Source of the DNA: a virus
Length of the DNA: 64,000 nucleotides
Reading direction: 5' to 3' (one strand)
Virus record (IMG/VR): IMGVR_UViG_3300045988_117195
Coordinates: 31,385 to 95,384 of that record
A program made the position numbers and the translations under genes. Below, one piece after another: positions 4,473 through 32,843 of the stretch. The notes under the pieces were generated by a model. That model worked only from the letters and a program-made list of their open reading frames with translations, was not told where the DNA came from and did no database searches. Every line of letters starts with the position of its first letter. Position 1 is the stretch's first letter.

Positions 4473-5003
4473 ATGAGAAGGAGATTTTTTAATGCTGCGG
4501 ATAATTTCGTGGGAGGATGTTATAATAAGTTATCTAATGAGGATATAAAAAGGCTTGGAGGAAAAAGATCTTATGTATGTCAGTTTAATAAAATTCATAT
4601 ACATATAGGACCTGTATTAAAAGATAATGATTCCGAAGAAAGTTATATAATGTTTAATAGTGATTGGAATCATGGTGGTTATGAATCTATAGTTTATCAC
4701 CATAGTAATAATGGTATTTTTATATTAGGTGAAAATAAAATTGGTAATATAGAAGATCATATACAGGATCTAACATATTGGTACGAATATGATCCAAACA
4801 TTAATGAAAATTATTGTTATTGTTATTATGAAGCTGATAACAGCGGAAATGCTATTAAGTTGAGCCGTGAGTTTGGTGATGTTTGCACTGTTTTTAATAT
4901 TCCCAGTTTGAAAGTTACTACTCTTCGTGATGGCGGTTTAAGTTTTCCAGAGATTTATATAGAAGGAGTTTGGGATCCGTTATTGTATAAGTCGGTTTTA
5001 TAA
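4473..5003 (+). CDS. hypothetical protein, cassette gene 2 (N-terminus MRRRF; unrelated body)
   Basis: ORF preceded by the duplicated junction with the same SD/start context as cassette gene 1. Confidence 0.5.
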   Translation: MRRRFFNAADNFVGGCYNKLSNEDIKRLGGKRSYVCQFNKIHIHIGPVLKDNDSEESYIMFNSDWNHGGYESIVYHHSNNGIFILGENKIGNIEDHIQDLTYWYEYDPNINENYCYCYYEADNSGNAIKLSREFGDVCTVFNIPSLKVTTLRDGGLSFPEIYIEGVWDPLLYKSVL

Positions 5004-5029
5004 TTAACTTTGCAAAAAAGTTAATCATT

Positions 5030-7288
5030 ATGGGTGTCAAATGTCAGATAGAAAAAAAGGAAAATGAAATAAAACGGGTTAAGGCTCCTAACGGGGAGCC
5101 TTCCGTTCTTTACGAAAGTGCCTTAAAATTATTAGGAAACAGCGAGCGGGCCCTTCAGGTATGGGCTAAGGCTTACACTCCTGGTTTTTTGTCGTATTAC
5201 GGTCATTGGAATAACCCGGCTCCAGGGGAGATGTTTAATACCGATTCCAATGGTGAACCTCTTTTAGAAGACGTGCTGTCGTATATGAAGCGTCAAACTT
5301 ATTTTGCCGATCCTCTAACGGATCAGGATGTTAAGGATGTAAGAGATTTTCTTTTATCTACCTATGGTGTTTATACGGCACCATCATTATCCAACATCAT
5401 TCTTCATTATTTTTATGTAGATGGTAGTTTGATACTGAATGAGCAGAATTTAAGAAGATCAGGCTTGTATAATGAAACAGAGATAAGTAGAATCTTATCT
5501 GATCCTTCTGTTCTTAATGAAGTTTCGACATCCATGAGGAAGTTATTGGATTATTCCAATAACGAACATGATAGGGAAAAAGATAATTATTTTATGTCTG
5601 TTGACTATCAGTATGGTCCTATTGTTTACAAGGAGGGAGTGTTTAACCAATTTGGTAAAAAAGTACCATATAATCCTTCTGAGCTTTATTATGCTATGCG
5701 TAAAACAGTAGCCGGCATAAAAAAATTTTCTGAATTTTCATCTGCTTTTGAATCGTTGAGAAACTCATATCCTGAACTGGTTGAGAAATTTGTTTCTGAT
5801 AAAGAATTTGCCGAATCTATGTTTGATGAGTTTTTATCTACGAATAAGATTCCGGTAATAAACATAGAAGGGGATGATGTGGTAGAAGGCAAGAGAAGAT
5901 CCTTGTCTAAGCTACAAGATCTGTCTTATTACAATCCTGGCAAAATAGAGTTCCTAAGAGCTCGTATATCAGCTTATTTAAATAGGGCTAACGCTGACAC
6001 CGAATCTGATTTAAGAAGCATGATATGGGATATAGAAGAGGCTTGTACGTGGTTTGGCATAGATATAATAGGGGCGTCAGAAACTTATGATGGCACAGAA
6101 GAATCTTTGAATAAGATAGATAATTTGATGCTGGATCTTGATATTTATGTGGCCAGGCACAATGATGTAAATTATGCTCCTACGTTGGCATCTTCTATTG
6201 ATGATGTTCTTGGTGATAGTACAGACTATTATTTTGGATTATTGCCGGAGTATATGGATAATTTGAATATCGTTTATTCTGAATCAAATATAGACCCAGT
6301 AGAAGCATTTGAGAAACATTCATTGCTTAAGGTAGGAGATAATCTATATCAAAGGATCAGCAAAGATGATCTTAACGAGATGTATCAAATATCAACAGTG
6401 TTAGCCAAGCACAACCTAACTCACTTTCCTGCTAAAATATATCCTGAATCTTGTTTTAAGAACGGCGTTTTGGATAAAGAGAAAGTACGGAACGTAGATA
6501 ATAATACGCTCATGGATTCCATTAAAAAATACGTCAGATCGTTCATGGATTCTCAGAACACGGAGGACATGATAATGACCAGGATGGCGTTTGGGCACCC
6601 GGCGGTACTTGATGTTTCTTACGCGGATGTGGATCGGGAATTTAGTCGGTACATGAACAAAAAACAAGATAGCGAAAACCCATTATCCTTATTCGATTTA
6701 TACCAATATTACCTTGACAACAAACTCCATAAAACAAAATTATATGATAATGCCTATAAGTATCTTGACTTCAAATCTGGTCCATCTTTGGGTCTTATTT
6801 CTGATGATCCTGATATTTTGAAATCAATAGAATTATCTTTATCTGGAAAAGACAGGTTGATGTTGTTTGATTATAGCATGACCAGCACCGACCCTTTTTT
6901 ATCAAAATTGTTTTATTTGGATAGGTATGACCCTTCGTATGCCGAGAATGATTTTGAACACTATTTTTACACCAGGCACCCGTATCTGTTAAAAGAAAAA
7001 TCGGGCCCTAATATCGTAGAGCAAGATGGTGTTATAACAGCCGAAGGTATTTATGATAATTTTATAAGAGTAGGTAATAAGATATGGTCTAAAGTAAGCG
7101 AAAGTAGTTCCGGCTCTATCTACCAAAATCTGACAGGGACCGAATCGGAGGTGAAATACGATTCTACCCAGAAGGCTAAGACAGTAGAAACCGATTACGC
7201 TCCATACCAAAACAGATCTGGCTTGACGCAAGATATGACCATAAGCAAGTCTGAATTGGATGATCTTAACAAATTAGAATGCAAATAA
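5030..7288 (+). CDS. hypothetical 752-aa protein (probable structural/virion protein)
   Basis: Long ORF in plus block; no recognisable motif. Confidence 0.6.
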   Translation: MGVKCQIEKKENEIKRVKAPNGEPSVLYESALKLLGNSERALQVWAKAYTPGFLSYYGHWNNPAPGEMFNTDSNGEPLLEDVLSYMKRQTYFADPLTDQDVKDVRDFLLSTYGVYTAPSLSNIILHYFYVDGSLILNEQNLRRSGLYNETEISRILSDPSVLNEVSTSMRKLLDYSNNEHDREKDNYFMSVDYQYGPIVYKEGVFNQFGKKVPYNPSELYYAMRKTVAGIKKFSEFSSAFESLRNSYPELVEKFVSDKEFAESMFDEFLSTNKIPVINIEGDDVVEGKRRSLSKLQDLSYYNPGKIEFLRARISAYLNRANADTESDLRSMIWDIEEACTWFGIDIIGASETYDGTEESLNKIDNLMLDLDIYVARHNDVNYAPTLASSIDDVLGDSTDYYFGLLPEYMDNLNIVYSESNIDPVEAFEKHSLLKVGDNLYQRISKDDLNEMYQISTVLAKHNLTHFPAKIYPESCFKNGVLDKEKVRNVDNNTLMDSIKKYVRSFMDSQNTEDMIMTRMAFGHPAVLDVSYADVDREFSRYMNKKQDSENPLSLFDLYQYYLDNKLHKTKLYDNAYKYLDFKSGPSLGLISDDPDILKSIELSLSGKDRLMLFDYSMTSTDPFLSKLFYLDRYDPSYAENDFEHYFYTRHPYLLKEKSGPNIVEQDGVITAEGIYDNFIRVGNKIWSKVSESSSGSIYQNLTGTESEVKYDSTQKAKTVETDYAPYQNRSGLTQDMTISKSELDDLNKLECK

Positions 7289-7366: not shown

Positions 7367-7786
7367 ATATGCACGTATATCAATAACATACAAGAAAAGT
7401 TAGATTTTCGTTGTTTATGAATTATTTTTATTAAGTTTGCAATATTAGTTTCAGGAAGGGATTATAGAAAATAGGGAAGGTAAGAACAGAACGTAACTAA
7501 TAACGGTAGGAAATGAGAATCAGTACCATCAAACGTAATAACAGCATTCATCTTATGTATAAAAACATTATGAATGATTTAGGTCAATTAAGAACTGTAG
7601 TTTCAAAATCCTATATTTATAATCTGATACGAAATCAAACCGGATTAAGTATCAGAACTATATCCCATGTCTTGAATCACACAAAAGAACAGGATACAGA
7701 TTCTTTGTGAAAAGCGTACATTTTCATACATTTGTGTATTCTTTAGTTTTTAGATTTAAGTTTTTTCATGGTATTAGTTTAGAGAT

Positions 7787-21630: not shown

Positions 21631-21673
21631 TGTTGTACCAAACAATTGCGATATGAGTTTAAATAAAAAACAA

Positions 21674-21703
21674 TTATGGCACCAAGAACTATTGGTGCCA
21701 TAA
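21674..21703 (-). terminator. terminator for minus-strand block (11-bp stem tatggcaccaa/ttggtgccata)
   Basis: Perfect 11-bp inverted repeat; on minus strand followed by TTGTTTTTTATTT. Confidence 0.5.
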
Positions 21704-21820
21704 TTGTTAAAACCGTTTATTGTAACAAGAGTCCACTACCTTTACCCTCTTTTCTTCTTTCTTACTTCCCCATTAGTTGATTTCCTTTCAACTATTCTAA
21801 GAGGAATATGAAACAAGTTT

Positions 21821-22309
21821 CTAAGCATTAATTTCATGACCTTCCCTATTTGTGAAAACTAAACCAATACCTTCTATAATATATCCTACTACAGGAGCTT
21901 TGTCAAATTCCTCCTTCGTAGCCCAGGTAGCATTATCAGGCATCAGATCCTTGAATGCGTCCGAAACATCACCTTGACACCAGCAGTTATTTGATACAAC
22001 AATGCCTTTCCCTTCGATATTGATATACATTTTTCTTCCACCACATCCAAGGGTGTTCCATCCGCTCGGTACGTTTTCCACCATAGGCTTAAGCACCCAG
22101 CTTACACCGTCTATCCTAACCCATCCAGGATCGTCTTTGTGCTTGTCGTACAAGTTTTGCCAAAAAGAGCATTCGTAGCACCACCCCCTGTCTTCCATGA
22201 CAGTTCTTATCTCACACCTTTCAAATCCATTTGCATCCATCGTGTGCGGAGAATGAGGCTGGTGAGGGGTGCCACATTTCGGACATACGAGTTTTAAATT
22301 ATTTTTCAT
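21821..22309 (-). CDS. zinc-ribbon protein, function unknown
   Basis: N-terminal CPKCG...H..H and further Cys pairs; last gene of minus block. Confidence 0.5.
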   Translation of the reverse strand: MKNNLKLVCPKCGTPHQPHSPHTMDANGFERCEIRTVMEDRGWCYECSFWQNLYDKHKDDPGWVRIDGVSWVLKPMVENVPSGWNTLGCGGRKMYINIEGKGIVVSNNCWCQGDVSDAFKDLMPDNATWATKEEFDKAPVVGYIIEGIGLVFTNREGHEINA

Positions 22310-22411
22310 ATTATTTCACTTTTACGATCTTAACAGAATCTCCGATATTGTATTCCCCTTGGTATCCACTGAATCAATAAAAGACTCTTTATTTTTTTTT
22401 TCTGAAAAGAT

Positions 22412-22906
22412 TTAGGCATTTAACTCTGATTTATAAAACTTCATTGTTGTTTCTTTGGAGATATAAACTTCGCATCTATCAGCTGGGCCATAACCTACAC
22501 GCGCTTGTATCCAAGGCAACTCTCTATGTATTGCTGTTTCAAGCTGAAACTGATTCCATTCTGAAAGATTTTCCAAAACAGTACTCACTAAATCTTTCTG
22601 GTCTGTTGTTAATTTGGCAAACTCAGCGTCAACATCTATATCACCGGGAGCATAACTATAGGACAATTCTGAATATAAAATTGATTTGTCTTTTAAACTG
22701 TCGTACACTTTACGGCTAACTGGCCCATGAACCCACGCTTGAAATTTATCAGAAACCAATTCTGTACCAAAGTAAGCAAGATGGTATGCGTCACAATAAA
22801 ACAACAATTTTTGCAATTTTAAGTGAGACATAGAGCCATAATGCTTAACAATATATTCACATAAGACTAATGAGTCTATCTTTTGAAGTTTTCGGCTCGT
22901 TTCCAT
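22412..22906 (-). CDS. Panacea-domain (DUF4065, SocA/PanA antitoxin-like) protein
   Basis: HLKLQKLLFYCDAYHLAYFG...AWVHGPVSRKVY matches Panacea core (LKLQKLLYFaqgwhL...W.yGPV..VY); ORF track start at 23002 is TTG, first ATG at 22906. Confidence 0.7.
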   Translation of the reverse strand: METSRKLQKIDSLVLCEYIVKHYGSMSHLKLQKLLFYCDAYHLAYFGTELVSDKFQAWVHGPVSRKVYDSLKDKSILYSELSYSYAPGDIDVDAEFAKLTTDQKDLVSTVLENLSEWNQFQLETAIHRELPWIQARVGYGPADRCEVYISKETTMKFYKSELNA

Positions 22907-23143
22907 TTTTCTATTTTTTTGATGACAAAAATACCCTTTTGTTTTTCTAAAACAAAGAAAATCCTTTATTTGTTTGTTAAACGTGTTTACAAACACTTTC
23001 AATAATAATCGGTATATATCACACGTTCACCATTTAAAGGAGATAGATCATATATAACCCATCCGTCATTAACCTGATTATCATCATGCGAACATGATGA
23101 TAACACAAGTGCCATCAATAAAACAAAATACCTCATATTATTT

Positions 23144-23335
23144 TCAGCATAAAAATTTGTAACCTGGTTTTACAGCTTCCGCTTCTTCTCTCGTATCAAA
23201 CATTAAGGTAGTGACAGCTCCTATTCCTTCACAAACGTAAGACACTTCCACCCACCACCTAAAAATCCCAGAGCCGTAATCATCATAGTACGGCTCAGAA
23301 AGAACTTCTTTCACGTACCCATCCAAATAATTCAC
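23144..23335 (-). CDS. small acidic hypothetical protein
   Basis: 63-aa ORF. Confidence 0.35.
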   Translation of the reverse strand: MNYLDGYVKEVLSEPYYDDYGSGIFRWWVEVSYVCEGIGAVTTLMFDTREEAEAVKPGYKFLC

Positions 23336-24569: not shown

Positions 24570-24878
24570 TTATTCTACTTTTTTGATTTCGCTCAAATCG
24601 TCTTCATACACCAAATAAGATCCTCTTCCAGGTCTTCCTTCTTTATTAGTTTTCTGGATTGTAAATATAACTGTTCCAGTATTCGTGATTTGCACGCTCT
24701 TAAAGAAACCAACAATAGGCTCTTTCGAACGTTTGTAAAGAACACTCACTTTATCTCCCTTCTTTAACCCATAAACAGAATCGAAATATTCCTTTTTAAT
24801 TCTTTCAATATTACTTCTATGTTTGTTCATTGCATCAAACTCGTCGTCTAACAGTTGAATCATTTGTTCTTTTGTCAT
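24570..24878 (-). CDS. hypothetical protein
   Basis: ORF in minus block. Confidence 0.45.
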   Translation of the reverse strand: MTKEQMIQLLDDEFDAMNKHRSNIERIKKEYFDSVYGLKKGDKVSVLYKRSKEPIVGFFKSVQITNTGTVIFTIQKTNKEGRPGRGSYLVYEDDLSEIKKVE

Positions 24879-31142: not shown

Positions 31143-32843
31143 TTATTTTTTGTCATCTCCTTTTAATTTCTTTAAAGTATCTGCAATCGGAAGCTGATCA
31201 ATGACTCCCAATGCCGGAGCGACGGTCTTGACAACATTGTTAAGGAAATTACCGGTACTGTTCTGACCGCCGTCAAATACCGTGATATTTCCGAGATTAA
31301 TGTGCTCAAATGCTTTAACCTGTTCTCCAGCAATTTCTTTCCACTGATTAACCATCTTGTACTGGATGGCGATCTGAGGATTGGATTCTGCTGCTTCCAC
31401 CATAGCCTTAAATCCGTCGGCTTCTGCCATTAACGACTTTTTCTTACCTTCGGCTTCTGCCTCCAGCTTCATCTGAATAGCTTTTGCCTCTGCCTCAGCT
31501 TTTGCCAAATGTGCTGATGCCTCAGCCTCAGCCCGGCGTTTGATCTTCTCGGCCTCGGCATCAGCTTGCAAGATAGCCTCTTCCTTCTGGGTTTCAGCCG
31601 GCACAATCTTTTCAGCCTTAAGCGCAGCCTGAACTTTCTTAGCCTTAGCTTCTTCCACTTCTTTGTCTGCAAGCTCTTTTGCTGTTTTTACAGCCGCTTC
31701 CGATTTAACTTTTTCTTCTCCGGCCTTCTTTTCTGATTGAGCTTTGATAATCTGCAATTCTGATACTGACACAGCAACCTCCTTCTGGGCATTGTTGTAT
31801 CCTATAGACGCATTTTTCTCAGCCTCAGCCTTCTTAATCTGAGCTTCAGAGTTTTGTATTGCTATAGCTGCTTCCTTGTCAGCTTCAGCCTTGTTCTTTC
31901 CGACTTCTTCCATCCTTTCAGCCTCGGCTTTATTTACTTCAAGTTCTGCCTTAGATCTTACGATCGCCGATTCCTTGTCGGTTAAAGTTTTTGCGATAAC
32001 CGCAGCCCTATCTCTATCTGCTTGAGCTACACCAATCTGTTTTTCTTTATCGGTTAAAGCCAAAGCTATTTCTTTTTCTTTCTTCGTTTCAGCTACTATT
32101 GTTTCCTTTTCTTTTTCAGTACAAGCAATTTGAATCTCTTGTTCTTTTTTGGTATTAGCCACAGCCGTTTCTTTCTCCTTCTGCTGTACAGCAATCTTAA
32201 TAGCCCCCAGCTTCTCCTGTTCTTCGATATTAGCCTGTGCTTCGTTCAGAGCCCTACTTTCAGCCTCCTTACCAAGGTTCATAATATAACCGGCTTCGTC
32301 TCTAATGTCACTGATGTTGATGTTCAGGAGGTAAAGACCTAACTTGTTAAGCTCGTTATCAATGTTCTTTCTTGCCTTATCCAAAAACTCATCCCTGTCA
32401 GAATTAAGTTTTTCGATTGTCATTTCAGCAATAATCAAACGCATCTGACCGTAAACGATGTCCGTAATAAGATTTTCAGTAGATTCGGTATCCATTCCCA
32501 AAAGTCTTTCTGCCGCATTTTGCATGATCTCTGGATTTGTACTGATAGCTACTGTAATAGTCGTAGGAACATCTACTCTAATATTCTGAGATGACAAAGC
32601 ACCGGTAAGCTTGCAATCTATTTGCATAGGCTCCATTGACAAAACATCATAGCTTTGAATAATAGGCAAGACAAATGCCGCTCCACCATGATATAATTTC
32701 GCCGATTTCTTTTCCCCACCTGTCTTACCATAAACGACCAAGACCTGATTAGGCTTACATCTACGATACCTTGATAAGACTCCGATGATTGTCAAAATAA
32801 TCACTACAGCTAAGATAGCTGACACGTACATGATTGTTGTCAT
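31143..32843 (-). CDS. flotillin-like SPFH/band-7 protein (FloT/YuaG family) with N-terminal TM helix and long Ala/Glu/Lys coiled-coil
   Basis: Collinear with B. subtilis FloT: YRRCKPNQVLVVYG, GGAAFVLPIIQ, AGYIMNLGKEAESRALNEA, EA-repeat region, C-terminal NITVFDGG. Confidence 0.85.
   Translation of the reverse strand: MTTIMYVSAILAVVIILTIIGVLSRYRRCKPNQVLVVYGKTGGEKKSAKLYHGGAAFVLPIIQSYDVLSMEPMQIDCKLTGALSSQNIRVDVPTTITVAISTNPEIMQNAAERLLGMDTESTENLITDIVYGQMRLIIAEMTIEKLNSDRDEFLDKARKNIDNELNKLGLYLLNINISDIRDEAGYIMNLGKEAESRALNEAQANIEEQEKLGAIKIAVQQKEKETAVANTKKEQEIQIACTEKEKETIVAETKKEKEIALALTDKEKQIGVAQADRDRAAVIAKTLTDKESAIVRSKAELEVNKAEAERMEEVGKNKAEADKEAAIAIQNSEAQIKKAEAEKNASIGYNNAQKEVAVSVSELQIIKAQSEKKAGEEKVKSEAAVKTAKELADKEVEEAKAKKVQAALKAEKIVPAETQKEEAILQADAEAEKIKRRAEAEASAHLAKAEAEAKAIQMKLEAEAEGKKKSLMAEADGFKAMVEAAESNPQIAIQYKMVNQWKEIAGEQVKAFEHINLGNITVFDGGQNSTGNFLNNVVKTVAPALGVIDQLPIADTLKKLKGDDKK

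Follow-up and report, generated by a model that had tools for sequence, protein, structure and literature searches.

What is the role of an antitoxin gene in a phage genome that holds no toxin to go with it? This question is raised by panA, a Panacea (DUF4065) gene in a 64,000-nt stretch of the IMG/VR virus record IMGVR_UViG_3300045988_117195 (positions 31,385 to 95,384, hereafter the window). Here, we compare the gene and its surroundings (Table 1) with related operons and sister phage genomes. The reading we favour, with a probability of roughly 0.6, is that this stand-alone PanA entered the phage genome very recently, out of a panAT operon carried by a temperate Bacteroidales phage or prophage, and acts in trans as a counter-defence against the PanT of prophages or hosts.

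Table 1. Features in and around the panA insertion (window coordinates).
Feature	Position	Strand	Remarks
162-aa Cys-rich neighbour	21821..22309	-	context only, not partner
Lipoprotein gene 3' remnant (...GYQGEYNIGDSVKIVKVK*), start lost	22311..22374	-	aligns to end of the csAssE-Sib 82-aa gene
Captured cassette: donor intergenic promoter region + panA + panT 5' stub	22368..23010	-	99.4% identity to L234:5410-6050
panT remnant, ~17 codons (MPKSFQKK/NKESFIDSV)	22368..22419	-	start codon overlaps panA end; frameshifted
panA, stand-alone Panacea (DUF4065) antitoxin gene, 164 aa	22412..22906	-	ATG start; Pfam PF13274
Codon 126, ATA (Ile) vs donor ACA (Thr)	22529..22531	-	sole amino-acid difference from donor
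Captured 5' region, Bacteroidota-type promoter	22907..23010	-	-33 TTTG 22953-22956; -7 TATTTTTG 22926-22933
Disrupted phage lipoprotein gene, 5' part, 45-aa ORF MRYFVLLMALVLSSC...	22999..23136	-	intact 82-aa gene in csAssE-Sib
63-aa neighbour (acidic), PHROG 8110	23144..23335	-	context only, not partner

The panA gene and its missing partner

The panA protein contains HLKLQKLLFYCDAYH...AWVHGPVSRKVY and matches the Pfam family PF13274 (SocA_Panacea) at E 2.1e-20 with 74.2 bits, well above the gathering score of 25.7 and over HMM positions 1-112 of 113, as well as PHROG 1281 (E 6e-30). The first-pass annotation, which had recognised a Panacea-domain antitoxin-like gene and proposed a profile search as its check, is borne out by these matches. 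The GPV motif that is conserved in the family and required for neutralisation (Kurata et al, 2022; PMC8832971) is present as G61-P62-V63 within AWVHGPV, and H127 and every other invariant position are retained. An AlphaFold2 (AF2) model (pLDDT 91.5) shows about eight helices and strands 55-58 and 61-64, in agreement with the published description of Panacea as compact and helical, with GPV on a small beta-sheet, and its BFVD matches include viral proteins annotated as Panacea. Among solved structures, no relative of PanA was found by sequence and the best Foldseek match had E 0.14; a PADLOC search of the protein gave no match, and with the SocA equivalog model (NF047745) it scores 53.4 bits, below the cut-off of 190. 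A locally built HMM found panA as the only Panacea ORF in the window. GenBank already contains the protein, unnamed, as a DUF4065 entry from a phage MAG (UVX68124.1).

Where does the gene start? The ORF (22412-23002, minus strand) is 196 aa long when counted from a TTG codon, and its first ATG, at 22906, gives 164 aa. Homologues are mostly 157-172 aa long among the best 120 clusters, and those in the contexts examined begin at an equivalent ME... start; the real start is therefore the ATG, to which the first-pass annotation had already drawn attention. The TTG at 23002 was discarded on the same grounds, and a promoter motif lies between the two codons. The span originally marked (22310-23143) does enclose the gene but is wider than it, and also holds an ORF of 45 aa with a lipoprotein signal that had gone unmentioned.

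In bacteria, panA is normally the first gene of a pair. All close homologues examined (60-78% identical) are followed by a conserved gene of 145-152 aa, here panT, with a usual overlap of 8 nt, and such pairs occur in Bacteroides, Phocaeicola, Prevotella, Alistipes, Dysgonomonas and other genera. When species-representative genomes with a PanA at least 47% identical to that of the window are counted, the partner lies directly downstream in 12 of 13 cellular loci, and the thirteenth has a short remnant. The partner family has no Pfam match at E<=1 and no PDB sequence match; full-length PanT (~150 aa) is predicted to have an alpha/beta fold of the RelE/ParE type. The panAT module also lies beside an IS1595-family DDE transposase in several neighbourhoods on Bacteroides- and Phocaeicola-type chromosomal contigs (L005-L011, L255, L256), which suggests that it travels with an IS1595-family element.

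The window lacks this two-gene arrangement. When three partner sequences were compared with the 64 kb by tblastn, the best match had E 0.05, so that a toxin elsewhere in the window was rejected, and what is left of panT is a stub of 17 codons, in line with the earlier remark that no toxin partner was obvious. Directly behind the panA stop codon lies ATGCCTAAATCTTTTCAGAAAAAAAAAATAAAGAGTCTTTTATTGATTCAGTG. A poly-A tract has grown here from A8 to A10, which shifts the frame; with the two extra As (22400-22401) removed, translation gives MPKSFQKKNKESFIDSV, which is identical to the N-terminal end of toxin P0122 (contig L234, 6001-6459), and homology to P0122 ends at ...GATTCAGT. The phage genome thus carries an antitoxin homologue without a cognate toxin.

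The donor operon and the insertion site

The only close relative in GenBank is phage csAssE-Sib (OR575929, 151 kb, human gut), at 92-94% identity. Its annotation includes ring and muzzle proteins (crAss-like virion names), BACON-type carbohydrate-binding proteins, a diversity-generating retroelement, its own replication genes and tRNAs, and no integrase is found among the features at positions 1-150,000 of the 151,256-bp record. The window phage is a crAss-like gut phage of ~150 kb, and its gene content together with the donor described below points to a Bacteroidales host.

Window positions 22375-23013 have no counterpart in csAssE-Sib, where an uninterrupted lipoprotein gene of 82 aa (WOZ57328, MRYFVLLMALVLSSC...) fills the same place with about 50 nt of its central part. 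In the window, the first ~41 codons of this gene persist upstream, as phage sequence down to about 23011 that is closed by a stop codon from the insert, and its last ~20 codons lie downstream of panA. For a wider comparison, 80 sister genomes were fetched via a neighbouring 238-aa protein that is 97-100% identical among them. Since csAssE-Sib and about 62 of the 80 have the whole lipoprotein gene, the insertion is the derived state. It occurs with identical junctions in three of the sisters, is absent from about 75, and is also present on four IMG/VR contigs, and is hence a minority allele carried by a few percent of the sampled sisters.

The lipoprotein gene is a dispensable, insertion-prone hot spot. 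In about nine of the 80 sisters a TnpB-like gene of 410 aa (Pfam OrfB_IS605 and Cas12f1-like TNB) breaks it up or stands in its place, at about 4500-5750 in each of L174, L176, L190, L192, L194 and L201, a site that corresponds to window 22375-23013; csAssE-Sib has two further TnpB genes elsewhere. Another variable accessory position near panA lies between the genes for 176 and 102 aa, where csAssE-Sib and many sisters carry a cytosine-5 DNA methyltransferase that is missing from the window (about 24584-24751 vs L001 8262-9389). Also absent from the window are the plus-strand genes WOZ57324 and WOZ57325 of csAssE-Sib, which in that genome separate the 2140-aa structural gene from the minus-strand block (about 21636-21763 vs L001 4668-5739).

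Might one of the neighbouring genes be a toxin that PanA restrains? The flanking 162-aa and 63-aa genes exist as first described, and had been put forward as candidate toxins, with panA as half of a phage-encoded PanAT pair; the 45-aa lipoprotein stub could be considered in the same way. Panacea domains pair with dozens of unrelated toxins (PMC8832971) and the neighbours are uncharacterised: neither the 162-aa nor the 63-aa protein has a Pfam, PADLOC or NCBIfam family, and the 162-aa protein has no PHROG family. However, the two genes adjoin, with the small lipoprotein gene between them, in csAssE-Sib and in about 62 of the 80 sisters, all without panA, and therefore cannot be obligate toxin partners; as toxins they were rejected. 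Moreover, the partner that belongs to panA is known from the donor operon and is truncated to 17 frameshifted codons in the window, and the gap between panA and the 162-aa gene is ~100 nt, in contrast to the 8-nt overlap typical of the panAT family. A phage-encoded pair of this kind is thus extremely improbable, and pairing of PanA with a neighbouring gene as a toxin-antitoxin system is effectively excluded. In some cassette-bearing genomes (L012, L150, L151, L243) the 162-aa gene is cut down to a C-terminal ORF of 69 aa, and therefore this neighbour is itself dispensable.

The origin of the insert can be traced. The captured cassette (643 nt, 23010..22368) is 99.4% identical to a 641-bp piece of contig L234 (ENA ERZ27293747), which encodes toxin P0122. 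The two differ by one silent substitution in codon 29, one amino-acid replacement at codon 126 and the 2-nt expansion of the poly-A tract, so that the PanA proteins are likewise 99.4% identical. In the donor, the shared segment begins immediately behind the stop codon of the preceding gene and comprises a 104-nt intergenic region, all of panA and 50 nt of panT. Short microhomology is present at both junctions (TATTAT and, at the 3' remnant of the lipoprotein gene, ATTC.GT), which points to illegitimate recombination. The direction of transfer, from donor to phage, is clear because the donor operon is complete, whereas the window copy is clipped and lies inside a broken phage gene. An earlier candidate source, the 78%-identical panAT cluster (L016/L017/L230), was superseded once the stub had pointed to P0122 and L234 proved 99.4% identical.

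The donor operon is prophage-like, and its PanA is one amino acid away from that of the window. L234-type contigs are phage-like, with an SPP1-type portal, and a closely related element with toxin P0121 recurs both as contigs of ~52 kb and embedded in contigs of 130-290 kb. A full panAT (PanA 66.5% and toxin 67.1% identical) is also present in the cultured temperate Bacteroides phage BI-TP1, induced from B. intestinalis. The donor allele itself is rare in the databases, with three contigs, and an element like L234 presumably lives in the host of the window phage.

The cassette brought more than a coding sequence. Upstream of panA lies TTTG-N20-TATTTTTG, which ends 19 nt before the ATG at 22906 and matches TTTG / TAnnTTTG, which we take to be the Bacteroides -33/-7 promoter consensus. 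This block is conserved in panAT loci (L017, L002, L234), and the ~100 nt that had been marked as possibly regulatory correspond to the captured promoter region of the panAT operon. The pattern TTTG-N17-23-TAnnTTTG has two matches in the 64-kb window (22926-22956 and 7704-7734) against 3.4 expected by chance; it is not enriched, consistent with other promoter types for most genes. With the cassette, a host-type promoter thus enters a genome in which such promoters are otherwise scarce.

By sequence comparison, the capture appears to be very recent, two point mutations away from the event. With two substitutions, selection on the window's own copy is not measurable because the transfer is so recent. 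Could the cassette then be a neutral passenger, an accidental and functionless product of recombination with a co-resident prophage that hitch-hikes in a dispensable site? Such an origin would be in keeping with the TnpB/IS605 insertions that the same site takes in about nine of 80 sisters, with a transfer too recent for selection to show and with the minority status of the allele. Nonetheless, we consider it quite unlikely, as the fragment consists of exactly the promoter and an intact gene, from the first base of the donor intergenic region onward. In addition, the exact 164-aa protein is found in 380 assembly blocks across many studies (165 with contigs of 50-200 kb); at each of the ten places examined it lies in this same phage, and the accessory genes nearby vary. 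Two further observations against a passenger come from the substitution at codon 126 and from a second group of phage orphans.

Position 126 and a second group of phage orphans

Position 126 is threonine in all 24 distinct toxin-linked PanAs of the fetched loci, down to ~40% identity, and is the only alignment column that separates orphan from operon PanAs in these loci. Among the best 120 homologue clusters, residues 126-127 read T-H in 113 and A-H or S-H in three, all three toxin-linked on inspection. I-H is limited to the cluster of the window, in which every phage-borne variant keeps I126, and I-R is limited to clusters of a second phage clade (clade 2), where H127 is replaced by R or C.

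Clade 2 comprises about 20 IMG/VR viral contigs (50-110 kb) whose PanA is 58-63% identical to that of the window, and no toxin homologue was found near these genes. In a neighbour-joining tree without bootstrap, toxin-linked PanAs separate the two phage orphan clades; since only one residue distinguishes the window clade from a PanA encoded in an operon, the two must be independent. The T126I substitution thus seems to be convergent and to have arisen separately in two phage lineages, although two events noticed after the fact are a lead and not proof. Within clade 2, the median pairwise dN/dS is 0.27 (13 distinct genes; the pairs are non-independent and a few codons upstream of the true start are included). 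Clade-2 PanA appears to be under purifying selection, and selection appears to maintain orphan PanAs in phage genomes. Both this constraint and the fact that the sole amino-acid change in the window is one shared with an independent orphan clade speak against a passenger without function.

Some clade-2 members carry a second, divergent Panacea gene next to the first (Pfam E 5e-17 and 2e-12) and no RelE-like partner, as in L026 (4007-4480, plus; 4771-5292, minus) and L036 (4007-4480, plus; 5258-5722, minus). These paralogues have V-K and S-H at the T-H position, and the paired genes may form a small stock of antitoxins. The 51.7-kb record IMGVR_UViG_3300045988_147180 (L027, L043) contains an orphan clade-2 PanA and a toxin-linked PanA ~10 kb apart, with a toxin 96% identical to the L005 partner over 127 aa; it is either a phage that carries both PanA types or an assembly chimera. 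In L042 (6197-7642), a DUF5675 gene encodes 481 aa, compared with 142 aa in sister contigs, and the insert, after ...HFEGIL, looks by eye like an intein or homing element.

What could the substitution at position 126 do? A stand-alone Panacea neutralises its toxin directly, and in PanA of B. choladocola neutralisation is abolished by Y56A and H120E, with H120 at the "C-terminal end of alpha5" (Ernits et al, 2023; PMC10440598). The mutagenesis primers of that study give AWQ-Y56-GPV and SRLT-H120-QPG, which align with AWV-H60-GPV and ETAT-H127-RELPW of the window, and in the AF2 model H127 is located at the C-terminal end of helix 119-127. We tentatively equate H127 with H120, on the basis of local motifs rather than a full alignment; with H127 as its counterpart, T126I would adjoin a residue needed for neutralisation. 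The substitution might strengthen or widen binding, protect the protein from proteases, make it unresponsive to an activating trigger or switch it to another partner. In clade 2, the replacement of H127 by R or C could reflect a neutralising function that is changed or lost rather than improved. That phage orphan PanAs are not simple copies and have been modified at a toxin-contact or sensor surface is a tentative suggestion, possible and yet doubtful. We also considered T126 alongside T36M and Q131L, mutations that relax specificity (Kurata et al, 2022; PMC8832971); the positions could not be equated, which leaves an analogy only.

Changes on or beside a residue required for neutralisation would also be expected if the protein had been repurposed, that is, if it no longer neutralises PanT and its altered surface (T126I, or I126 with R/C127) binds another host or phage protein. 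It could then, for instance, be an adaptor for a protease, as SocA is, or a sensor or decoy for another defence system. Panacea has been proposed to be primarily a sensor (Ernits et al, 2023; PMC10440598), SocA is a ClpXP adaptor (PMC8832971), about half of DUF4065 genes lie outside TA-like loci, and the second phage lineage has at least two distinct Panacea genes next to each other. Still, a single residue distinguishes the window protein from a genuine operon antitoxin, H127, GPV and the other invariant positions are all retained, and its score with the SocA equivalog model (53 bits) falls short of the required 190. A new function is therefore unlikely.

Counter-defence and relation to known systems

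How would a trans-acting PanA help the phage? In the mechanism that we propose, the 641-bp donor piece would have been inserted into the dispensable lipoprotein gene by microhomology-mediated illegitimate recombination, and the captured promoter would allow the host RNA polymerase to transcribe panA early in infection. Phage-made PanA would then bind the PanT of a resident prophage or of a host panAT module, by direct, type II neutralisation, and would keep it silent when infection would otherwise free the toxin. With PanT silent, abortive infection or prophage-mediated exclusion would therefore fail. PanT toxicity, phage defence by panAT and neutralisation in trans are steps that we infer. 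PanAs are reported to be highly specific (PMC8832971), and therefore the window gene would protect only against closely matching PanTs. The first-pass annotation had proposed an orphan antitoxin that acts in counter-defence; the orphan state stands, with the toxin truncated, and counter-defence is the best fit to the evidence assembled here.

The gene family and the concept of counter-defence are both known already. The window shares PF13274, GPV and the stand-alone architecture of B. choladocola PanA with the described PanAT systems (PMC8832971, PMC10440598), and the donor locus is a classic antitoxin-first operon of two overlapping genes. The AW-x-GPV and T-H motifs of window and donor match the interface residues Y56 and H120 validated by mutagenesis. 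The window differs in that its toxin gene consists of 17 frameshifted codons, hence there is no TA pair; the two-gene module is present in donor L234 and in the 12 of 13 close cellular loci. SocA, the type VI antitoxin and ClpXP adaptor for SocB, has the Panacea domain in common with PanA, but PanA stays below the SocA equivalog cut-off and its partner is a protein of predicted RelE/ParE fold, not SocB. Compared to the RelE/ParE toxins RelE, YoeB, HigB and YafQ, PanT is without a family match at the sequence level, has an N-terminal extension of ~35 residues and is paired with Panacea rather than with RelB, YefM or HigA.

T4 Dmd, which acts against RnlA/LsoA, and pseudo-ToxI are phage-encoded orphan antitoxins that serve in counter-defence. 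Counter-defence by a phage orphan antitoxin is established for DarTG1, with the DarG-like AdfB (PMC11825919). Like these, the window gene is a phage antitoxin homologue without a linked toxin that plausibly acts in trans. In contrast, it belongs to a different family and would act by binding rather than enzymatically, and its donor operon, breakpoints and toxin stub can still be recognised. A search of the accessible literature found no paper that links Panacea/DUF4065 to anti-defence or to crAss-like phages, and none that mentions csAssE-Sib. New are thus the Panacea/RelE-like combination in a putative counter-defence role, the visible donor, breakpoints and stub, and the apparently convergent T126I.

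If T126I brings tighter binding, resistance to proteolysis, blindness to a trigger or a wider toxin range, the phage protein would be a natural "always-on" antitoxin, and the substitution would give a first natural means of probing the sensor role proposed for Panacea. A role of TA modules in the phage defence of gut Bacteroidales has been suspected and rarely shown, and crAss-like phages are among the most abundant viruses of the human gut. The locus offers a natural experiment, with sisters that do and do not carry the 640-bp cassette, a known donor operon and toxin, and a single candidate adaptive substitution. It makes testable whether a Panacea/RelE-like module of temperate phages excludes virulent phages, whether a phage can escape by taking the antitoxin alone, and what role the conserved T-H surface of Panacea plays. 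Finally, the cassette exemplifies gene flow from temperate phages into crAss-like phages, apparently caught within two point mutations of the event.
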